5,584 nt of DNA from assembly GCF_000009705.1 (NCBI RefSeq), contig NC_003241.1, positions 1 through 5,584 on the forward strand. Reading direction: 5' to 3'. This DNA is from Nostoc sp. PCC 7120 = FACHB-418 (GTDB lineage: Bacteria; Cyanobacteriota; Cyanobacteriia; Cyanobacteriales; Nostocaceae). Each line of letters starts with the position of its first letter. The stretch's first letter is position 1. The translations under genes were made by a program, and so were the position numbers. The notes beneath the pieces were generated by a model, which saw only the letters and a program-made list of their open reading frames with translations, did no database searches and was not told where the DNA came from. This document shows positions 1 through 5,584 of this stretch, one piece after another.

Positions 1-1449
1 TACGTAGCGCGTCAGAAGGCTTATCACCCAGTAGCTAATTACTTGTCATCCCTTGAAAACTATGGCATAGAACATAGCATAGAATATGGCACAGTTGATA
101 GCATAAAATATGCCATGTCTGCAATACTACAATCTGTTGCAGACATACACGATGACCTAGCACAAACTATTTTAATTAAATGGCTAGTATCAGGTGTAGC
201 GAGAATATTTGAACCTGGGTGTAAGGTTGACATGATGCCTATCTTCTACGGCAGACAGGGAATAGGTAAATCATCATTCTTGCGGGAATTATGCCCTCAA
301 TCGGATTGGTTTAGTGACGACCATTCTGGCACGGGTGATAAGGATGCAATGATGTTGCTCAATCAATTTTGGATTCTAGAGATAGCAGAGTTTGAGAAAA
401 TCTATTCCAAGAGTGATGCAGAAACATTAAAAGCAATTGTCACAAAACTCGCTGATACTTACCGCGCCCCATACGACAAAGATTTGGAGACACACTTCAG
501 AAGATGTATTCTCGCCGCTACAGCTAACAGTCAAGACTTCTTGCGTGACTCATCCGGCGATCGCCGTTACCCAGTTATTGCCCTTCACCAAAAAGTAAAC
601 ATACCCTTGCTGATTGAGAAACGGGATGAGCTTTGGTTTTATGCGATGCAATTGTATAGACTTGGCTACCAATGGCATACGACACCAGAAGAAGACGCAA
701 AGGTAAGCATCAATAACGCTGCTTATCGTGGTTACGACATATTCGGGGAAGCGGTAGCCGATGCGGTCAAGTTTCCTGGTTCACCTCACGGGCTGATGGA
801 GAAAACCCGTATCGATTATGTATGGGAGAAAATCAACGCTCACAAGTCACCGTTGCCAGACTTAACCCAAAAGGATAGCCGCGCTATTGCTAACGCTCTA
901 AAACAACTTGGCTACGAACAGAAAAACGTGTGGACTGACGGTAGTAGCAAGAAGTTCTGGGTACTTACCTCACCCATTACCTCATTACCTGAGTTTTCAG
1001 ACTCAGGGCAGGGTGAGGTAAGGCATACACAGCAAGAGTTACAGCCATTCCTTACCTCATTACCTCAAATAAAACTTTTGAAAAAAAATACTAAGGTAGC
1101 AGAGAGCATCGTCGATGATAATCCCTACGCTCACCTTGATGATGAAAAAGAAAGTTTAAAGTCAGGTAATGAGGTAATGGAAGCCTCAAACGTAGACACG
1201 GCAAGCCTTACCTCACCATTACCTGACCTTGTAGACTCAGGTAATGATGCAGGAAATGAGGTAAAAATCGGCGATCGCGTAACCCTGATGGTAGATCACA
1301 GTTTCGCGCTGGCAGGCACAGCATTAGAAGTTGTGGGCATCAATGACAGATACATCAGATGCTTAAGATGTGACCGCAAGCAAAATCAGCCAGCCAGCCT
1401 GAGGGAAATTATCGTACTAGCTGACCAAGTGCAGTTGACCAACTCATAA
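1..1449 (+). CDS. VirE-family (PF05272-like) P-loop NTPase/helicase part of a primase-helicase replicase. The 5' end is open at the window edge, and the TTG at 43 in the ORF track is not the real start.
   Basis: Frame 1 is open from base 1 (YVARQKAYHPVANYLSSL...). It carries the HPV-x-YL motif typical of VirE/D5-like helicases and a Walker A (GRQGIGKS, 250-273). Further family-like blocks are WILEIAEFE, YRAPYDK, ATANSQDFLRDSSGDRRYPV and RDELWFYA. An S/P/T/D/E-rich linker and a small C-terminal domain follow, with stop TAA at 1447-1449. Confidence 0.9.
   Translation, partial: YVARQKAYHPVANYLSSLENYGIEHSIEYGTVDSIKYAMSAILQSVADIHDDLAQTILIKWLVSGVARIFEPGCKVDMMPIFYGRQGIGKSSFLRELCPQSDWFSDDHSGTGDKDAMMLLNQFWILEIAEFEKIYSKSDAETLKAIVTKLADTYRAPYDKDLETHFRRCILAATANSQDFLRDSSGDRRYPVIALHQKVNIPLLIEKRDELWFYAMQLYRLGYQWHTTPEEDAKVSINNAAYRGYDIFGEAVADAVKFPGSPHGLMEKTRIDYVWEKINAHKSPLPDLTQKDSRAIANALKQLGYEQKNVWTDGSSKKFWVLTSPITSLPEFSDSGQGEVRHTQQELQPFLTSLPQIKLLKKNTKVAESIVDDNPYAHLDDEKESLKSGNEVMEASNVDTASLTSPLPDLVDSGNDAGNEVKIGDRVTLMVDHSFALAGTALEVVGINDRYIRCLRCDRKQNQPASLREIIVLADQVQLTNS
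61..120. repeat. Five degenerate 12-bp tandem repeats (iteron-like) inside the replicase CDS.
   Basis: The units are tatggcatagaa / catagcatagaa / tatggcacagtt / gatagcataaaa / tatgccatgtct. Units 1 and 2 match at 10 of 12 positions, as do units 2 and 4. They encode the 4-aa periodic peptide YGIE-HSIE-YGTV-DSIK-YAMS. Confidence 0.7.
115..146. repeat. Perfect 10-bp stem, 12-nt loop hairpin immediately after the 12-mer array.
   Basis: ATGTCTGCAA (115-124) and TTGCAGACAT (137-146). Confidence 0.7.
965..1264. repeat. Dense field of TTACCTCA / TGAGGTAA direct and inverted repeats inside the replicase linker-coding region.
   Basis: TTACCT occurs at 965, 977, 985, 1052, 1060, 1208 and 1219. AGGTAA occurs at 1016, 1164, 1172, 1239 and 1259. 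There is an 18-bp perfect inverted repeat: CCATTACCTCATTACCTG (974-991) with CAGGTAATGAGGTAATGG (1163-1180). There is also a palindrome CATTACCTGA-N10-TCAGGTAATG (1217-1246). Confidence 0.85.
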
Positions 1450-1475
1450 CGACTGCGACTTGCTTTTCAAAAGTA

Positions 1476-1700
1476 ATGGATCGCCTAATGCTTCCCTATT
1501 TTGGTAAGCAAATGGCAATAACCTGCGCTTATCGTTCAGCCGCTAAAATGAAAGCAAAAAAACCTGATATTGGTACGATTCCGGTATCAGGACTGATGCC
1601 CCATTACCGAGGTAGGCATACCAAGGCTTTGAGGGCAATTTATCCTACTCATTTGGGGAATCCGTGGGCATATCAAGTAGGTAGATTGGGGGGTGAATGA
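1476..1700 (+). CDS. Doubtful ORF (74 aa), more likely non-coding 3' UTR or terminator sequence.
   Basis: It has no SD and an odd basic composition. The lysine run comes from an A7 tract that belongs to a minus-strand intrinsic terminator (1556-1591) lying inside the ORF. Confidence 0.2.
   Translation: MDRLMLPYFGKQMAITCAYRSAAKMKAKKPDIGTIPVSGLMPHYRGRHTKALRAIYPTHLGNPWAYQVGRLGGE
1556..1591 (-). terminator. Rho-independent terminator for minus-strand transcription (RHH gene).
   Basis: Read on the minus strand, the sequence is CCTGATA-N15-TATCAGG followed directly by T7. On the plus strand this is the A7 at 1556-1562 and the stem arms at 1563-1569 and 1585-1591. It lies about 115 nt downstream of the RHH stop codon. 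Confidence 0.55.
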
Positions 1701-1705
1701 TAAGT

Positions 1706-1888
1706 TTAGGCTATGTTCTGCTGTTCACCTTCAATCAACTTTTTGATAGCCAGTGCAATCATATAGGATCTGCTACGGTCGTATTTTTTGGCTACTTCAT
1801 CCAACTGGTTAATTGTTTCTTGGTCGATCACAACGGATAACCTTGGTTTCTTACTTGGCATGACTCGCTTTTCTATCGATACAGCCAT
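1706..1888 (-). CDS. Ribbon-helix-helix (CopG/Arc/MetJ-like) DNA-binding protein, probably a transcriptional repressor or copy-number regulator.
   Basis: The 60-aa product has a basic N-terminus (PSKKPR), a beta-strand-like RLSVVID, then two helices (ETINQLDEVAKKY and SRSYMIALAIKKLIE). This is the classic RHH layout. An alternative start is at Met10 (1861). It is divergent from the 1979 operon across a 90-bp region that contains an inverted repeat. Confidence 0.75.
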   Translation of the reverse strand: MAVSIEKRVMPSKKPRLSVVIDQETINQLDEVAKKYDRSRSYMIALAIKKLIEGEQQNIA

Positions 1889-1913
1889 TGTATGTGAAAT
1901 CTGGTTATAGGTA

Positions 1914-1942
1914 TTGACGGGTAGTAACCTAAGCTATATAGT
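1914..1942 (+). promoter_or_regulatory. Sigma70-type promoter for the plus-strand operon.
   Basis: TTGACG (1914-1919), an exact 17-bp spacer, then TATAGT (1937-1942). This places it about 37 bp upstream of the ATG at 1979. Confidence 0.5.
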
Positions 1943-1972
1943 GATAGTCACAGTACACATCAGTTACTACCC
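1919..1972. promoter_or_regulatory. 10-bp perfect inverted repeat bracketing the -10 element. Candidate operator for the RHH protein.
   Basis: GGGTAGTAAC (1919-1928) and GTTACTACCC (1963-1972). CAGTAC also occurs twice (1951-1956 and 1972-1977), 21 bp apart. The repeats sit in the 90-bp divergent intergenic region. Confidence 0.45.
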
Positions 1973-1978
1973 AGTACC

Positions 1979-2278
1979 ATGACAATTGAATCAACAACGC
2001 TAACCACTAGCAAGCCTAAAAAGCGTAGGCGTGTCCAGCACTTGCCAATGGTGCAAGATGCGTCTCAAATGGTAGATATCGCGCTCAACCTCAAGTGTGA
2101 AACTGTATCTATTCAGTGGGATGAACTGCCAATTTACTCGCTATTTTCTATTAACCGCGATGGCAGCCACCCTAAGTTGAAAGTTTCAAAAGTAAGCTGT
2201 GTATCGCTTGCGGATAGTAAGCAGTATCACGTAAATCAGGACGTAGGCAATAGAATCTTTCGATTGCATATCATCTAA
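1979..2278 (+). CDS. Hypothetical protein (99 aa) with a basic N-terminus (KPKKRRR). First gene of the plus-strand operon.
   Basis: The ORF starts about 37 bp downstream of a good sigma70-like promoter (TTGACG-17-TATAGT). I recognise no domain and see no clear Shine-Dalgarno (SD) sequence. Confidence 0.55.
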   Translation: MTIESTTLTTSKPKKRRRVQHLPMVQDASQMVDIALNLKCETVSIQWDELPIYSLFSINRDGSHPKLKVSKVSCVSLADSKQYHVNQDVGNRIFRLHII

Positions 2279-2284
2279 TATCTA

Positions 2285-2340
2285 TTCCACATTTTATTGC
2301 ATATTTTATTTAATAGAATGTGGAACAAAATATGGAACAA
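2285..2340. promoter_or_regulatory. AT-rich intergenic element with an inverted repeat and TGGAACAA direct repeats.
   Basis: TTCCACAT (2285-2292) pairs with ATGTGGAA (2318-2325), and A/T pairs extend the stem. TGGAACAA occurs at 2321-2328 and 2333-2340, 12 bp apart. This is the most AT-rich stretch in the window. Confidence 0.35.
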
Positions 2341-2358
2341 TAAAAATACACACACATC

Positions 2359-2565
2359 ATGACTGAAAGCACTTTCAAGGATACACTTGCTCACACCCAA
2401 TTCGGCGCGAACGCTGATAAATTCGGCGGATGGGATACAGCGATGGAAGCGGCGGAAGCGGTAGAAACTGGCGACATTCAATCATTAAGAGATATCGCCA
2501 GTAATCATCCGGAGGCTACCCCATTAATAGAAAGAATAGTAACCGTATCATCTGAACATAGATAG
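2359..2565 (+). CDS. Hypothetical small acidic protein (68 aa).
   Basis: The ORF is co-oriented within the operon, and its stop overlaps the SD of the next gene. I recognise no domain and see no clear SD of its own. Confidence 0.5.
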   Translation: MTESTFKDTLAHTQFGANADKFGGWDTAMEAAEAVETGDIQSLRDIASNHPEATPLIERIVTVSSEHR

Positions 2566-2575
2566 GAGTGTAATC

Positions 2576-2839
2576 ATGAAGCGATTTCTAATAGGGTTCT
2601 TTTGGGAATGCCTAGCGTTTACCATTGACGTGAGCGACGCGGTTTGGCGCGAGTTCGGTGAACATTTCTTGTACGATATGGAAACATACACCAAGCAGGA
2701 TGTACACCCGTTGCGAGAGGTAGCGCGTGTTATCGGTCGAGGATTCGCTACATTCGCTCTGCCTATCCGAAAAAAGGCTCCAAGTTGGCAGAGATCAAGA
2801 ATGAGAACCAGTTTGGAGTGTATGCTCGATAAGGAATGA
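2576..2839 (+). CDS. Hypothetical protein (87 aa) with a hydrophobic N-terminus (FLIGFFWECLAFTI).
   Basis: AGGAG at 2564-2568 lies 7 nt before the ATG at 2576. The stop TGA overlaps the ATG of the following small ORF (ATGA at 2836-2839). Confidence 0.6.
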   Translation: MKRFLIGFFWECLAFTIDVSDAVWREFGEHFLYDMETYTKQDVHPLREVARVIGRGFATFALPIRKKAPSWQRSRMRTSLECMLDKE

Positions 2840-2964
2840 CATCATCTAACACGGTTGTAGCTACCTCAATTTTTATGATTGGGGTGGCTATTTTTTTACT
2901 GGCATTATCCCTCAATGATGCCCCCAAGATGCGATTAGAAATAAGGATTGAAATCAATGGATGA
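2836..2964 (+). CDS. Small predicted single-pass membrane protein (42 aa), not in the supplied ORF track.
   Basis: Hand translation gives MTSSNTVVATSIFMIGVAIFLLALSLNDAPKMRLEIRIEING. It has a 20-residue hydrophobic helix followed by a charged tail. There is an ATGA start/stop overlap with the upstream gene, and an 8-nt overlap with the ATG (2957) of the ATPase gene. That pattern suggests translational coupling. Confidence 0.4.
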   Translation: MTSSNTVVATSIFMIGVAIFLLALSLNDAPKMRLEIRIEING

Positions 2965-4129
2965 TAAGGAATTACTCACGCTAGATATGCCCCTCCAGCG
3001 TATGAAACGCAGTGCTTGGGTAGCGATGCCCTTACCCGACAGTAAGGCAGCAATACGCTTTATTGGGTGGGCATCAGGTAGGCTGGCTTTTATGGCATTG
3101 TCTACCAGTTTAAGCATTATCAAAAATGCTGCTAAAGCTGTTATTTGGATATCGGAAAAAATTGAAGATGGGTTAAAACTTCTCACCCATTACTATGATG
3201 CACTCCCTTACATGGGAATGCCTCAAGACACACTTACGCTTGAGGCAATACCAGCTAACCAGGGGGCTAGCAATCTTCAGACTCCATCTGTAGATATCCT
3301 AGCAGGTATCGCGGGGAAACACTTACTAATAATTGGCGATACGGGAAGCGGTAAAAGTACGATCGCTCAGTACATTGCTGCCAGGAATTCATCACAGATA
3401 AAAGTTTATGATGCTGATGCCGCGCCGGATGATTGGCAAGGCTTGAAAGTAGTCGGCAAGGGTGGCGATTTTGGCGAGATTAACGCATCAATGAACGCTG
3501 ATATTGATGAATTAGAAAATAGAATCAAACTGCGATCGCAATCTGGCGATAATGCGCTCACTGGCAAGGAACTTTGCATCATTGCTGAAGAATTCCCCAG
3601 TTTAAAGGATGAGTGTGAAATTGCACCGGAATGGCTGGGTAAGCTGGCTAGGAGGGGTAGAAAGCCAAAGATATTTGTCATCGCTTTGTCACAGTCGGAC
3701 AGTGTAAAAGCGCTTGGCATTGAGGGTGACGGCGCTATCCGGCAGAACTTCAAATACTTACGATTGGGTAAGTTCGCGGTACAACACGCCAAAAAACTGG
3801 GTAATGATGCCATGGTGAACTGGCTTCAATCTGGCAAGTATCGAGCGATGCTGGACGATGAGCCAGCGCAAATGCCATCAATAGATAGTACACTTTTAGT
3901 ACACACGAGGTTGCTTGATAGTCGCGCGATCGCCGGCGAAAATCCGCCGGAACCACCGCCGGAAATGGATCTAACCAATTTACCTCATTCGCTAAAACCA
4001 GCTATTTTGGCGCTAAAACAGGAGGGCTGGAGTGATAGCAAGCTAATCAAGGAGGTGCTTGGCTACTCCGGCGGGAATTATCAAAAGGGCAAATTGATTC
4101 TGGATGAGTTACTAGGCAGGGGACAATAG
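2957..4129 (+). CDS. FtsK/SpoIIIE/TraB-like P-loop DNA translocase ATPase with a C-terminal helix-turn-helix-like domain.
   Basis: Walker A is LLIIGDTGSGKST (3335-3361) and Walker B-like is LCIIAEEFPSL (3575-3592). The blocks RRGRKPKIFVIALSQSDS and GAIRQNFKYLRL are collinear with the FtsK motifs (RAaGIHlilATQRPS and IKaN.ptRiaf). A proline-rich linker (NPPEPPPE) precedes a roughly 50-aa helical tail. I prefer ATG 2957, which has AAGGA 9 nt upstream, over the tracked TTG at 2948. Confidence 0.85.
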   Translation: MDDKELLTLDMPLQRMKRSAWVAMPLPDSKAAIRFIGWASGRLAFMALSTSLSIIKNAAKAVIWISEKIEDGLKLLTHYYDALPYMGMPQDTLTLEAIPANQGASNLQTPSVDILAGIAGKHLLIIGDTGSGKSTIAQYIAARNSSQIKVYDADAAPDDWQGLKVVGKGGDFGEINASMNADIDELENRIKLRSQSGDNALTGKELCIIAEEFPSLKDECEIAPEWLGKLARRGRKPKIFVIALSQSDSVKALGIEGDGAIRQNFKYLRLGKFAVQHAKKLGNDAMVNWLQSGKYRAMLDDEPAQMPSIDSTLLVHTRLLDSRAIAGENPPEPPPEMDLTNLPHSLKPAILALKQEGWSDSKLIKEVLGYSGGNYQKGKLILDELLGRGQ

Positions 4130-4435
4130 ATGATTTCGATAAATTACGAGCAGAAAAATCTAAGGATGGCTAAGAAGGGTACACCGCGCATCAGCGCGGA
4201 TGCCTACGACCAGGCGGAAATCGAGCGATTGGCAGAAAACCATAAAACCATTCGGTATCATGCCAGCAATGGTTTTGAATTCTCTATTGGGGTAGACAGT
4301 CGCCGTGTGTTGACTGCGCGTACTCAGATAGACAGCCGCATACATTACCGTTACGTGGGAACAATCGAGACGGTATCCAAGGAGCAACTGGAAGCGATCG
4401 CCAACGAATTTAAAGAAATATATGAGGGCAAATGA
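4130..4435 (+). CDS. Hypothetical protein (101 aa). Last gene of the operon.
   Basis: The ATG directly abuts the TAG stop of the ATPase gene (TAGATG). A G-rich SD-like AGGGGA sits at 4118-4123. An intrinsic terminator follows. I recognise no domain. Confidence 0.6.
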   Translation: MISINYEQKNLRMAKKGTPRISADAYDQAEIERLAENHKTIRYHASNGFEFSIGVDSRRVLTARTQIDSRIHYRYVGTIETVSKEQLEAIANEFKEIYEGK

Positions 4436-4451
4436 TATGATGCCCAAAAGC

Positions 4452-4500
4452 AAAACCCCGACTGGTTTTAGCGTCTTCCTGTCGGGGCTTTGTTTATTTC
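4452..4500 (+). terminator. Rho-independent terminator of the 1979-4435 operon.
   Basis: The GC-rich stem pairs CCCCGAC(t)GG (4456-4465) with CC(t)GTCGGGG (4478-4487). The T-rich tract CTTTGTTTATTTCTT follows, and an A-run (4452-4455) precedes the stem. Confidence 0.65.
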
Positions 4501-4507
4501 TTATTCG

Positions 4508-4667
4508 GAGTGCCTACGAGTGCCTATCCATGCCATAGAAACATGAGTAGCGGAGGCTTTTGACCACTGAATTAATTATGCCATATAGGAACTGAATAGT
4601 ACAGTCCATGCCATAACTTTTCAGCAAAAGTCTTAACTTATGCAATAAGAGCAAGGGTAGGCACTCG
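4508..4667. promoter_or_regulatory. Repeat-rich intergenic control region upstream of the replicase gene. Candidate origin, operator or leader.
   Basis: Tandem GAGTGCCTA copies lie at 4508-4516 and 4518-4526, with an inverted copy TAGGCACTC(G) at 4658-4667. There are three ATGCCATA boxes (4530, 4578, 4608), two ACTGAAT copies (4566, 4591) and a hairpin ACTTTT-CAGC-AAAAGT (4616-4631). A possible -35 TTGACC lies at 4560-4565, but the -10 is weak. Confidence 0.5.
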
Positions 4668-4690
4668 CTAATAAACTTTAGGAGTGACCC

Positions 4691-5584
4691 ATGGTAAACA
4701 CATTACAAAAAAACCAATCCAAAGAACAGACCATTGAATTTTTGTCCCAACAGCGTGGTATACCTGTTGACTGGCTTGAGGCTCACTGCAAGCGCGATCG
4801 CGACGGATGGCTGATTACTGGAGCTAATTATCAGCAACAGAAACGCCTAGATAAGCCTAGAACGACCAAGGACGGCAAGCAGGTTAAATATGTATCGCAC
4901 ACCAAGGATAAGCAGAAGTACGACATATTTATCCCAGTTGAGCCTACTTTTGGGCTACCGATAACGGATGATTACGACCGCGACGCGACGCTGGTGATCA
5001 CTGAAGGGGCATTCAAAGCTATAAAAGGTTGTAGCGAGGGCGTGTTGACTGTTAGCGTGCCTGGGGTAAATCAACTGTTCAAGCCCAAAGAAAGCGGCGG
5101 CGACTTGGTGAACGGACTGCACGCGCTCACCATTAGATATAAGAAAATAATCATCGCGTTTGACGCTGATGCCAGTTTTAAACCTCAAGTATGGGATGCC
5201 ATAAAGAAAGGGGCTATGGCATTAATTGAGCGCGATTGTGATGTAAAAATAGCTGTGTGGCAACATTCGGAAGAGACTAAAGGAATGGATGATTATATCA
5301 ACAAAGAAGGCATAGAAGCTTTCAAGTTAGTGTTAGAAAATGCGCTAGCTTTGGATGCTTGGGAACATCAATATCCGCGTCCAGAGGACAAGGCATCCAA
5401 AACAAAGCGAACAAAAGCACGGGAAGCAATAGAAAAATATTACGGCGATAGATTGCAGTGGAATGAATTAAAACAAAGAATAGAATTAGATGGCACTCAA
5501 TACAAAGCGGGTCATGCTTATATTGATATAGATAAGGATATCTGCATTGAGTTACCTAAAGAACTCGCTATGGACTTGATGGTA
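4691..5584 (+). CDS. N-terminal part of the primase-helicase replicase: a Toprim-like (DUF3854-type) domain followed by the start of the VirE N-terminal region. The 3' end is open at the window edge.
   Basis: ATG at 4691 follows AGGAG (4680-4684) with a 6-nt spacer. I translated it by hand and found 298 sense codons with no stop up to base 5584. Toprim-type acidic motifs are present: LVITEGAFKA (Glu codon 5003-5005) and IIIAFDADA (DxD, 5162-5170). The tail RLQWNELKQRIELDG matches the N-terminal region usually found upstream of VirE NTPase domains. It is missing from the supplied ORF track only because it has no stop in the window. Confidence 0.85.
   Translation, partial: MVNTLQKNQSKEQTIEFLSQQRGIPVDWLEAHCKRDRDGWLITGANYQQQKRLDKPRTTKDGKQVKYVSHTKDKQKYDIFIPVEPTFGLPITDDYDRDATLVITEGAFKAIKGCSEGVLTVSVPGVNQLFKPKESGGDLVNGLHALTIRYKKIIIAFDADASFKPQVWDAIKKGAMALIERDCDVKIAVWQHSEETKGMDDYINKEGIEAFKLVLENALALDAWEHQYPRPEDKASKTKRTKAREAIEKYYGDRLQWNELKQRIELDGTQYKAGHAYIDIDKDICIELPKELAMDLMV

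Follow-up and report, generated by a model that had tools for sequence, protein, structure and literature searches.

The window, 5,584 bp in length, represents one whole circular plasmid of a filamentous cyanobacterium, and a re-check of its ORFs placed them at the coordinates given here. The replicase gene (780 aa, + strand) runs across the circular junction in a continuous frame, from 4691 to 5584 and on through 1-1449. Its N-terminal part (4691-5584) carries a DUF3854 (Toprim-like) domain (Pfam, 4.5e-21), while the C-terminal part (1-1449) contains a VapE-like P-loop helicase-type domain (Pfam VapE-like_dom, 5.5e-62; PHROG DNA helicase/primase families, 2e-55), a linker that bears arrays of an 8-mer, and a small C-terminal domain. 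The protein belongs with the DUF3854-containing cyanobacterial Rep proteins of the CyRepA type (PMC10079941). The region upstream of the gene (4517-4667) combines TATGCCATA-like repeats (4529-4647) with a 17-nt inverted repeat (4517-4533 / 4651-4667), and may be a replicase control region. Further TATGCCATA-like copies lie within the replicase gene at 61-117, and the motif TATGSCATA, with one mismatch allowed, occurs 13 times against an expected 2.2.

The 8-mer TTACCTCA forms convergent arrays at 965-1264, in the 3' third of the replicase gene, with direct copies at 965-1067 and inverted copies at 1162-1264. When up to one mismatch is allowed, 13 of its 20 hits fall in this field (whole-window expectation 4.2; 0/200 shuffles). 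The field proposed by the first-pass annotation as a clt locus thus exists, but the role suggested for it does not hold: relatives sharing this replicase have an array of another 8-mer in the same place, and an array whose position in the replicase gene is kept while the 8-mer changes behaves like an origin. Judged from these sequence comparisons, the arrays are most likely the replication origin rather than clt. That the only strong 8-mer array on the plasmid behaves in this way counts against the transfer function discussed below.

A repressor of the RHH (CopG/Arc) type, 60 aa long, is encoded on the minus strand (1706-1888), divergently from the ATPase operon. It passes the Pfam RHH_1 model (5.1e-5; 23.5 bits versus a gathering score of 20.5), matches the PHROG Arc-like repressor family (2.5e-6), and has homologues in the equivalent place in 17 related loci, pDU1 among them. 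The divergent control region (1889-1978), as read from its sequence, contains a promoter-like site for the + strand operon, TTGACG (1914-1919) and TATAGT (1937-1942) separated by a 17-nt spacer, which is the top consensus match (10/12) within 1400-4800. A perfect 10-bp inverted repeat, GGGTAGTAAC (1919-1928) and GTTACTACCC (1963-1972), brackets this site and is a candidate RHH operator. The divergent RHH gene and the promoter-like site flanked by an inverted repeat, both described at first pass, are therefore confirmed.

The first gene of the operon (1979-2278, + strand) encodes a 99-aa protein of family c2, in which a basic N-terminal stretch (KPKKRRR) precedes a conserved domain some 65 aa long. 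No other partner of the ATPase is as well conserved: homologues occur in 59-60 of about 69 loci, in every case on the same strand as the ATPase and upstream of it. The 99-aa protein has no match in Pfam, PHROG or PDB sequences. The next product, a small acidic protein of 68 aa (2359-2565, + strand; 12 D+E, 5 K+R), has homologues in three related loci (L001, L010 and L015), its place in other loci being taken by small acidic ORFs without homology to it. An 87-aa ORF (2576-2839, + strand) shares an ATGA stop/start overlap (2836-2839) with a 42-aa ORF (2836-2964, + strand), whose own stop codon (2962-2964) lies beyond the ATPase start codon at 2957. Both had been described as small hydrophobic proteins coupled to the ATPase, and this is true of the 42-aa product, a single-pass membrane mini-protein ending in RLEIRIEING that is clearly transmembrane (KD19 2.52, at least 1.6 being required for a mini-ORF). 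For the 87-aa ORF, the hydrophobicity ascribed to its N-terminus is weak (KD19 1.38), falling under that threshold; this ORF has no homologue across 79 loci, and is uncertain as a genuine gene. Of 60 loci, 42 have a transmembrane ORF of 39-67 aa that overlaps or directly adjoins the start of the ATPase gene, and such mini-ORFs share a strand-like terminal motif (...KIEVQYGK or ...GVIYGK). The 42-aa protein is proposed to be a membrane anchor or partner of the ATPase. A 101-aa ORF (4130-4435, + strand), with its ATG immediately 3' of the ATPase stop, has no sequence homologues and one weak PHROG hit (0.004); unrelated ORFs of about 80-100 aa occupy this position in relatives.

The ATPase gene (2957-4129, + strand) encodes 390 aa from ATG 2957, the likely start, preceded by AAGGA 9 nt upstream, or 393 aa from TTG 2948. 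Walker A (GDTGSGKS, at residue 130) and Walker B (IIAEE) are invariant in an alignment of 53 family sequences. The protein falls short of every curated FtsK or TraB model, which counts against a transfer function; its Pfam hits are sub-threshold P-loop matches (DUF87, 1.2e-4; FtsK_SpoIIIE, 15.8 bits versus a gathering score of 24). A confident AlphaFold2 model (pLDDT 84) matched TcpA (1e-6), the FtsK motor (1.4e-6) and EccC (6.5e-6) in the PDB with Foldseek, each at a probability of 1.0. The ATPase has 113 close homologues; a profile search reached 2,560 cluster representatives at E<=1e-3, and some of the distant relatives exceed the FtsK_SpoIIIE threshold. By modelled structure and transitive profile homology, the motor is a member of the FtsK/TcpA/EccC clade, as the initial assignment to the FtsK family had it. 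A Zot-like assembly ATPase was ruled out by the position of Walker A and the lack of a Zot hit, and packaging ATPases of the A32/PRD1 type were rejected as nearest kin, since Foldseek favours FtsK, TcpA and EccC.

The model comprises a long N-terminal amphipathic helix (32-88), a RecA-like motor (about 115-310), a proline-rich linker (321-342) predicted to be disordered (pLDDT below 50), and a C-terminal three-helix domain (349-388). The N-terminus is moderately hydrophobic (1.20; family median 1.32) and is not a confident transmembrane segment, which is a further point against a transfer function. The proline-rich linker and helical tail noted earlier are present, but the tail, modelled as three helices without a beta wing, does not detectably resemble FtsK gamma or any Pfam HTH, and its comparison with a recognition domain of the FtsK gamma type was not upheld.

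The top PDB match of the motor domain is the coupling protein TcpA of the Clostridium perfringens plasmid pCW3 (TM-score about 0.4 over about 220 residues, 18% identity); it is likewise plasmid-borne, and its solved construct (about 350 residues) is similar in size. This match might mean that the ATPase is a coupling protein of the TcpA or VirD4 type, the plasmid being mobilised as single-stranded DNA by a host-encoded type IV secretion system located elsewhere. NCBI PGAP calls some relatives 'type IV secretory system conjugative DNA transfer family protein', and RHH proteins are common accessory factors of relaxosomes. Such a role is nevertheless very improbable. Pfam and domain searches found no relaxase, rolling-circle Rep or VirB4 among any ORF of the plasmid, in agreement with the absence of the first two claimed at first pass; no relaxase, rolling-circle Rep or oriT-processing enzyme was found in the plasmid or in about 70 related loci, none of which has a linked VirB4 gene. 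All 11 PLSDB plasmids that carry the ATPase family were typed by MOB-suite as non-mobilizable, without a relaxase. TcpA-type coupling proteins, in contrast, work and co-occur with VirB4-type secretion systems and MOB_T relaxases, and their homologues were reported from Firmicutes only (PMC3548315).

The module, with a core of c2, small ORFs, the transmembrane mini-ORF and the ATPase, was found in about 70 loci, cyanobacterial without exception, and the named hosts are all filamentous (Nostocales, Moorena, Allocoleopsis, Pseudanabaena, Annamia, Richelia). Circular plasmids of 5.5-6.4 kb (the present one, L001, L024, L025 and pDU1) hold little besides a replicase and the module, and a 9.1-kb relative sits integrated in tRNA-Lys, flanked by 49-nt repeats and carrying int, RHH, module and rep. 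The core is joined to at least four unrelated replication systems (DUF3854-VapE, the 373-aa Rep of pDU1, a DnaB_N+AAA_25 helicase, and c14/c16), suggesting that its function belongs to the module and not to replication; it is also paired with differing recombinases.

One possible function is plasmid maintenance: an FtsK-like pump sited at the closing septum would move plasmid copies out of the way or share them out between the daughter cells of the filament, or would act with a tyrosine recombinase to resolve multimers, in the manner of FtsK with XerCD. FtsK is among the closest folds, no ParA/ParB genes were found on the 5,584-bp plasmid with Pfam and PHROG, and a small tyrosine recombinase is encoded by pDU1 and by the 16-kb elements described below. 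Moreover, pDU2 was reported as a dimer of pDU1 (PMC6933252), and PMC13031611 cites work on how the copy number of pDU1-derived vectors varies from cell to cell. However, the 5,584-bp plasmid has no recombinase, so the module works without one, and the module is retained in elements integrated into the chromosome, which have no need of partition. Small multicopy plasmids rarely require active partition, and Schmetterer and Wolk reportedly found in 1988 that a 1.75-kb pDU1 fragment lacking the ATPase gene was enough for replication in Anabaena. A maintenance device is thus distinctly unlikely.

In about 40 relatives the module lies within 15-16-kb elements that encode an XRE or RHH repressor, recombinases, Amidase_3 (1.3e-28) and a conserved block of 4-8 genes without Pfam or PHROG matches, which could specify a virion or a transfer apparatus. 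One such element is a circular 16.3-kb contig, and many contigs bearing c46, the most conserved ORFan, measure 15-17.5 kb. These elements could equally be a temperate virus, and the module might serve to package the genome of a membrane-containing or pleomorphic virus not yet described, or of a plasmid or satellite descended from such a virus. The membrane-anchored ATPase would then load circular dsDNA into a particle or vesicle made by the ORFan block, and the 5,584-bp plasmid would represent a derivative that lacks a capsid and might rely on a helper for its packaging. FtsK-HerA ATPases that act together with small membrane proteins do package the genomes of membrane-containing viruses; in PRD1 the packaging ATPase P9 is anchored by 42-47-aa membrane proteins. 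In addition, the ATPase weakly matches a PHROG family annotated 'terminase large subunit' (3.2e-6), and its BFVD matches comprise an unnamed viral protein (8.4e-20) and A32-like packaging ATPases (1e-6 to 1e-5).

Several observations nonetheless make packaging unlikely. Although PRD1 P9, STIV2 B204 and poxvirus A32 belong to the same FtsK-HerA superfamily, they match less well than FtsK/TcpA-like proteins, and no viral packaging ATPase appears among the PDB top 50 for the model; the short A32/P9-type enzymes are not known to have the extra N-terminal helix and C-terminal domain seen here. No capsid gene lies next to the ATPase, and neither the 5,584-bp plasmid nor pDU1 nor the other 5.5-6.4-kb plasmids have a possible one. 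The c46 protein has an alpha/beta fold, not a jelly-roll, and no PDB neighbour (best E 0.18); c46 and c28 profiles gave no match to PDB sequences, and c29 gave a chance-level match to a metallopeptidase (E 0.02). The ATPase and c29 have no tblastn match among 50,697 phage genomes, and 2.9 million IMG/VR contigs contained no close member of the ATPase family.

The best reading of the module, to which we tentatively assign a probability of about 40%, is relaxase-independent transfer of double-stranded DNA, with the operon (1979-4435) acting as a self-contained, repressor-gated DNA-translocation module for plasmid spread rather than for replication. The RHH protein, bound to the inverted repeat over the promoter, would hold the operon low. 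Upon expression, the 390-aa ATPase would form a hexameric ring at the cytoplasmic membrane, held by its amphipathic N-terminal helix and the 42-aa transmembrane partner, and would pump double-stranded plasmid into the neighbouring cell of the filament without a relaxase or type IV secretion system, as Streptomyces TraB does. The DNA might be selected by the conserved basic 99-aa protein and/or the C-terminal three-helix domain. This reading is suggested by the FtsK/TcpA/EccC clade together with the absence of relaxase, VirB4 and rolling-circle Rep, by the small plasmids reduced to a replicase and the module, by the portability of the core across unrelated replication systems, by the layout of the tRNA-Lys relative, which is that of actinomycete integrating conjugative elements (AICEs), by the retention of the transmembrane mini-ORF by position and motif in most loci, and by filamentous hosts that parallel mycelial actinomycetes. 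The Amidase_3 of the 16-kb relatives also fits, being the type of enzyme (AmiC) that perforates the septa of Nostoc with nanopores. The lack of FtsK gamma or HTH similarity and of a wing in the C-terminal domain argues against transfer, as does the diderm envelope of cyanobacteria, since a single pump would not suffice for movement from one filament to another.

The resemblance to TraB/Tra of Streptomyces plasmids (pSVH1 and pIJ101, on which the original proposal was built, and pSG5) and to AICEs such as pSAM2 is partial: the motor clade, the missing relaxase and the AICE-like relative support it, while the clt and FtsK gamma arguments fell away. In both cases an FtsK-clade motor is the sole enzyme besides the replicase, relaxase and type IV secretion genes are absent, small ORFs include a membrane protein, a small repressor is divergent, small-plasmid and tRNA-integrated forms exist, and the hosts grow as chains of connected cells. 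Kor repressors, however, are of the GntR type, whereas the cyanobacterial ones are RHH or, in other relatives, XRE, and the 99-aa partner and transmembrane mini-ORF have no known counterpart in the Streptomyces systems. The cyanobacterial plasmid also differs in having no demonstrated clt and a diderm host, and its ATPase in showing no sequence-level membership of TraB, homologues of which were reported from Actinobacteria only (PMC3548315).

A module of this family is also found on pDU1 of Nostoc sp. PCC 7524 (NC_008440), whose ATPase, a true family member (WP_011666303, 'ATP-binding protein') has no function assigned in its record or in the literature searched. It is 45% identical over 93% of the length and stands in the order RHH, c2, small ORFs, a 49-aa mini-ORF overlapping the ATPase start, and ATPase; pDU1 differs in encoding a 183-aa tyrosine recombinase and a Rep unrelated to the present replicase. 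The same uncharacterised module is thus carried by a classic Nostoc plasmid.

The FtsK-like ATPase of the plasmid (390 aa, 2957-4129, + strand) is encoded in an operon (1979-4435, + strand) that consists of ORFs of 99, 68, 87 and 42 aa, the ATPase and an ORF of 101 aa, and all the ORFs listed in the first-pass annotation are present at their places. Every product of the window other than the ATPase and the replicase has at most 101 aa. The 87-aa and 42-aa ORFs meet in an ATGA overlap, the likely start of the ATPase (ATG 2957) lies inside the end of the 42-aa ORF with AAGGA 9 nt upstream, and the 101-aa ORF begins on the base directly after the ATPase stop. The divergent gene (1706-1888, - strand, 60 aa), which had been taken for a small RHH regulator, scores above the Pfam RHH_1 gathering threshold (23.5 versus 20.5 bits) and encodes a protein of the CopG/Arc type. 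In the intergenic region between them (1889-1978), the best sigma-70-like match is TTGACG-17-TATAGT (1914-1942), and the inverted repeat described there is a perfect one of 10 bp (1919-1928 and 1963-1972), whose arms enclose the -10 element together with the probable start of transcription.

All ORFs of about 79 gathered loci, 69 of which contain the ATPase, were clustered. The 99-aa family (c2) accompanies the ATPase in 59-60 of the 69 loci; in this protein a basic N-terminus precedes a conserved domain of about 65 aa, for which neither Pfam nor PDB sequences gave a match. The N-terminus of the ATPase has a Kyte-Doolittle 19-residue maximum (KD19) of 1.20, below the usual transmembrane cut-off of 1.6, which is reached by 10 of 53 family members (median 1.32), and a separate transmembrane mini-protein is conserved beside it. 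This is encoded by an ORF of 39-67 aa directly 5' of the ATPase, mostly overlapping its start, and is transmembrane in 42 of 60 loci. The mini-ORFs cannot all be clustered by BLAST and were matched by position, size, topology and a strand-like C-terminal motif (KIEVQYGK, GVIYGK; RLEIRIEING in the window); since these four features agree, the 42-aa ORF is regarded as a real, conserved partner. Of the two small hydrophobic proteins proposed for the operon, the 42-aa product (KD19 2.52) is clearly a membrane protein, the only such one in the operon, but the N-terminus of the 87-aa product (KD19 1.38) remains below the cut-off. The RHH gene is present in 17 loci, and in others its position is occupied by a different small regulator, of the XRE type or otherwise. 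Homologues of the 68-aa ORF occur in three loci, and the clustering yielded no homologues of the 87-, 101- and 74-aa ORFs.

The Walker A motif GDTGSGKS (G130, G133, G135, K136 and S137), E215 of the Walker B motif (IIAEE) and R238 of RRGRK are invariant among 53 sequences, which were selected from 113 close homologues and aligned for AlphaFold2. The ATPase thus has the Walker A, the Walker B and the arginine after the sensor strand that characterise the FtsK-HerA superfamily. Its Pfam matches are sub-threshold (DUF87, 1.2e-4; FtsK_SpoIIIE, PF01580, 0.01, with 15.8 versus 24 bits and over the P-loop only), NCBIfam gave nothing meaningful, and sequence and profile searches of PDB sequences returned uninformative P-loop matches only (such as midasin and shikimate kinase). 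The AlphaFold2 model is confident (pLDDT 84) and comprises a long helix (32-88) followed by a RecA-like core (about 115-310), from which a disordered, Pro-rich linker (321-342) leads to a three-helix C-terminal domain (349-388). As a RecA-like motor it was matched by Foldseek, with a probability of 1.0 over about 220 aligned columns, to TcpA of pCW3 (1e-6), the FtsK motor (1.4e-6), EccC (6.5e-6) and HerA (1.6e-5); in the PDB ranking the first three are followed by HerA, VirB4 and KaiC. When 1.84 billion cluster representatives were searched with a profile, 2,560 relatives were found at E<=1e-3, and distant members of the superfamily defined in this way pass FtsK_SpoIIIE (P0258 with 38 bits, P0239 with 31 bits); one distant relative has a winged helix of the MarR type at its C-terminus. 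The assignment to the FtsK family made at first reading is therefore borne out by fold and transitive homology, which place the ATPase in the FtsK clade of the FtsK-HerA superfamily, and not by curated family membership, the threshold of which is missed. TcpA is the closest solved structure, although membership of the TcpA family is not established. An inovirus assembly ATPase of the Zot/pI type was rejected: Walker A is located at residue 130 and not at the extreme N-terminus, and no Zot occurs among the Pfam or PHROG matches. JGI labels many members of the family 'energy-coupling factor transporter ATP-binding protein EcfA2', and PGAP labels some relatives 'type IV secretory system conjugative DNA transfer family protein', in both cases without support from the context.

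The C-terminal tail had been proposed to be a DNA-recognition domain like those of FtsK gamma and TraB, and this was not supported. Streptomyces TraB reads 8-bp repeats by a C-terminal winged HTH, whereas the window ATPase is confidently modelled with a three-helix bundle without a beta wing. No Pfam HTH was detected in this domain in any of 29 members, comparison by hhalign with an E. coli FtsK gamma sequence entered by hand gave a probability of 0.5%, and a search of PDB sequences gave no match. The modelled bundle may bind DNA and could equally serve for protein docking. Segregation or multimer resolution, which might be considered for a protein with the FtsK motor among its nearest folds, is judged an improbable role for the module.

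The replicase ORF (4691-5584 joined to 1-1449, 780 aa) is free of stops across the end-to-start junction; the window is a complete circular replicon, and a linear reading would cut the replicase to 468 aa. The protein has an N-terminal Toprim-like DUF3854 domain (4.5e-21, 75.6 bits) and a VapE-like P-loop domain of helicase type (5.5e-62, 209.5 bits; both Pfam), the domain composition of DUF3854-type cyanobacterial replicases (CyRepA-like). For Rep proteins containing DUF3854, in which the helicase-type domain was named DEXDc, a role in driving the replication of cyanobacterial plasmids has been shown (PMC10079941). The HIP1 octamer palindrome GCGATCGC occurs six times in the 5.6 kb (557, 1271, 3532, 3926, 4394 and 4794), which, like the G+C content of 44%, fits a cyanobacterial host. 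Close relatives (L001, L024 and L025) are circles of 5.5-6.2 kb assembled with terminal overlaps; with the whole window as query, megablast detected no near-identical element among plasmids and phages, and Rfam found no RNA family in the window.

The linker-coding part of the replicase gene contains 13 copies of TTACCTCA at 965-1264, versus 4.2 expected in the whole window, arranged as convergent arrays of direct (965-1067) and inverted (1162-1264) copies. In relatives that share this replicase, the corresponding position is occupied by another 8-mer: GGTCTGCA in the circle L001 (5479-5880), ATGCTTCA in locus L006 (7080-7480) and CCCTGCAC in L007, an integrated element (13670-13863). These repeats had been suggested as a clt locus, which in Streptomyces TraB systems is composed of 8-bp repeats; here, however, the array tracks the replicase, with an element-specific 8-mer at a constant place, and the suggestion is not supported for 965-1264. 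Because it follows the replicase in the relatives, the array is read as a probable origin that lies within the replicase gene. The origin of phage lambda lies within gene O, and convergent sites suit two helicase rings loading head-to-head. TATGSCATA-like motifs are also overrepresented (13 matches versus 2.2 expected), with clusters inside the replicase gene (61-117) and just upstream of its start (4529-4647). The upstream cluster is surrounded by a 17-nt inverted repeat (4517-4533 and 4651-4667), and these repeats (4517-4667) are probably the control region of the replicase. The integrated 9-kb elements possess a second convergent array, separate from the replicase-linked one, of five direct and then about six inverted copies of AGTCCTTA directly beside the RHH gene (L007 8148-8366; L017 8140-8359), and plasmids of the pDU1 type have an array behind their RHH gene. 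Thus a cis site linked to the module may exist in some elements; the window has no array beside its RHH gene.

The core of the module (the ATPase with the 99-aa family, small ORFs and the transmembrane mini-ORF) was found on three kinds of backbone, which are unrelated to each other. The first comprises plasmids of 5.5-8 kb with either the DUF3854-VapE replicase (the window, L001) or the 373-aa Rep of pDU1. Plasmid pDU1 of Nostoc sp. PCC 7524 (NC_008440, 6,361 bp) carries the whole module; its ATPase, a true member of the family, is 45% identical to that of the window and is annotated only as 'ATP-binding protein'. The second kind comprises elements of about 9 kb with a tyrosine integrase of 395-425 aa. 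One of them, a 9.1-kb element in the chromosome of Dulcicalothrix desertica PCC 7102 (L007), contains the integrase, the RHH gene, the module and a DUF3854 replicase between 49-nt direct repeats that are 92% identical (5145-5193 and 14229-14277), the right one inside tRNA-Lys(ctt), and is a clean tRNA-integrated mobile element. The third kind, elements of about 15-16 kb, is represented by some 40 loci. The module occurs together with four different replication systems and is not required for replication; a 1.75-kb pDU1 fragment without it reportedly replicates in Anabaena. It is a core function of the elements and not cargo. A role in defence was likewise rejected: the PADLOC match to mad8 is partial, centred on the P-loop and of 34.6 bits, and the gene is a core gene of the element.

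The named hosts are all filamentous cyanobacteria (Nostoc, Calothrix, Tolypothrix, Rivularia, Scytonema, Richelia, Plectonema radiosum, Moorena, Allocoleopsis, Pseudanabaena and Annamia), and the labels of two MAGs, Patescibacteria and Methylacidiphilales, look like binning errors. A tblastn search with a Pfam-positive distant member matched only cyanobacterial plasmids. TraB homologues have been reported only in Actinobacteria and TcpA only in Firmicutes (PMC3548315). Judged from these sequences, the ATPases would form a new, distinct and cyanobacteria-restricted clade of FtsK-like translocases of mobile elements with partner proteins of their own. No paper was found in the literature that links FtsK/TraB-type transfer to cyanobacteria or gives the pDU1 ATPase a function.

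The absence of a relaxase, a T4SS and a rolling-circle Rep noted at first reading holds for the domains of all window ORFs. Neither relaxase, VirB4 nor rolling-circle Rep was found in the scanned conserved neighbour clusters, and the unscanned clusters, all under about 110 aa, are too short to hold a relaxase or VirB4. Every PLSDB plasmid with a member of the ATPase family is typed as non-mobilizable. The ATPase could in principle be a coupling protein of the TcpA/VirD4 type for a resident T4SS, and TcpA heads the list of structural matches; however, no VirB4 or relaxase is linked to it in the window or in about 70 related loci, and such a role is very improbable. Streptomyces TraB also acts without a relaxase or T4SS, a likeness to the window and its relatives that consists in absence only. 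TraB with its small plasmids and integrating conjugative elements is the closest functional analogue of the module, although membership of the TraB family is not established.

Taken together, the module would represent a repressor-gated, membrane-associated pump of FtsK type that works with two small, obligate partners. On a relaxase-free element, such a pump would most simply serve to move the element's dsDNA across a membrane, either into a neighbouring cell, as TraB does, or into a particle, as viruses do in packaging their genomes. Transfer of dsDNA from cell to cell is favoured, with a probability of roughly 0.4, since translocases of the cellular or conjugative kind have the nearest folds, the module is retained on plasmids of 5.5-6.4 kb in which no gene could be structural, the integrated 9-kb elements resemble the integrating conjugative elements of actinomycetes, and the hosts are filamentous. 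The TraB-like interpretation offered by the first-pass annotation is partly supported and remains the best hypothesis, although its two most specific elements, the gamma-like domain and the clt at 965-1264, were not supported. It can tentatively be proposed that filamentous, multicellular cyanobacteria harbour a family of relaxase-independent, FtsK-pump elements of their own, which would pass dsDNA between the cells of a filament by way of its septa. Such a machine would comprise the ATPase, a membrane anchor of about 45 aa and a DNA-selecting protein of about 100 aa, to which the 16-kb relatives would add an AmiC-like amidase opening the septal wall. The probability left by these and the other readings considered here belongs to some other function.

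Conjugation of dsDNA by a single FtsK-like pump has so far been peculiar to mycelial actinomycetes. If septal transfer is true, such elements would be the counterpart of TraB conjugation outside Actinobacteria, in a diderm, and a relaxase-free module of filamentous cyanobacteria would suggest that this mode of transfer arose or persisted wherever bacteria form chains of connected cells. To our knowledge, native plasmid conjugation in cyanobacteria is poorly characterised, and the module offers a concrete and testable candidate mechanism. An experiment would be easy to set up, as the module is located in a source of shuttle vectors: pDU1 provided the standard Anabaena/Nostoc shuttle-vector replicon (PMC10079941). 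The behaviour of pDU1 vectors, for example the variation of copy number along filaments, might depend on the module; cell-to-cell variation in the copy number of pDU1-based vectors in Anabaena filaments is the subject of a paper known here through its citation in PMC13031611. Even if transfer is wrong, the 2,560 cluster representatives (E<=1e-3) constitute a large uncharacterised family with obligate partners, and the 9-kb and 16-kb integrative elements consist almost entirely of unannotated genes.

The 15-16-kb layout is shared, with the ATPase operon, by about 40 loci in chromosomes of Nostoc, Calothrix and Rivularia. It includes a block of ORFan clusters on one strand (c243, c46 and c29, then either c41 or c62-c57-c132/c183-c28-c28), a tyrosine recombinase of about 193 aa, an Amidase_3 protein (1.3e-28) or a different small enzyme in its place, an arm for replication with either c14/c16 or a DnaB_N+AAA_25 helicase, a small regulator (an XRE repressor or one of another type), and the ATPase operon. 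An IS110-family DEDD recombinase occupies a fixed place in 39 of these loci and is probably the integrase of the elements themselves. A circular relative of 16.3 kb was also recovered (L062 and L068, NZ_DASQZC010000669.1), its ATPase being split across the contig ends, and a Calothrix MAG contains a tandem pair (L027/L028). In all, these Nostocales elements (L026, L041, L050, L052 and about 35 others) occur both integrated and circular, and their genes are almost wholly unannotated.

The second route would be packaging of the element's DNA into virions. Among predicted viral structures, the ATPase is best matched by an unnamed 384-aa protein (8.4e-20), followed by FtsK-like proteins from tailed phages, one of them a Nodularia phage, and only after these by A32-like packaging ATPases (1e-6 to 1e-5); no viral packaging ATPase is present among the top 50 PDB matches in Foldseek. 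The c29 protein (L026 1435-4140, - strand, and homologues; about 900 aa) has an N-terminal coiled coil, a (PS)n/Pro-rich linker, hydrophobic glycine-zipper segments and a conserved helical C-terminal domain, and resembles a tape-measure, spike or channel protein, without any match; tblastn found none in phage genomes. The ORFan block, like ten ORFans of the left arm and backbone, has no Pfam or PHROG match, and profiles of c46, c28 and c29 gave nothing useful against PDB sequences. The adjacent jelly-roll capsid that marks PRD1/A32-type systems has no candidate in the window. In the relatives one ORFan was modelled, c46 (P0309, 277 aa, L026 599-1432, - strand), the most conserved ORFan of the 16-kb elements with 410 Nostocales homologues, many on contigs of 15-17.5 kb. 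AlphaFold gives it a confident model (pLDDT 80) with an alpha/beta fold and no jelly-roll, to which no PDB chain, capsid or otherwise, is a significant neighbour (best E 0.18); c46 was hence rejected as a capsid, and its fold may be new. As far as the model goes, this neither proves nor excludes a virion, but it removes the most obvious capsid candidate. Packaging is considered unlikely overall, though still a serious rival, being placed behind cell-to-cell transfer and ahead of segregation.

Distant members of the ATPase superfamily were also seen in viral contexts. One adjoins baseplate genes of myovirus type on a prophage-like contig (L078 1-11677), and two IMG/VR contigs (L074 and L075) encode further ones; where the carrier is a tailed phage, such an ATPase is unlikely to be its packaging enzyme. 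A 16.4-kb contig with the ORFan block and no ATPase (L076) was rejected as an ATPase-less element, because it has no terminal overlap and was taken as an assembly break. The same contig carries an inserted group II intron reverse transcriptase (12189-13700, - strand; RVT_N, RVT_1 and GIIM).
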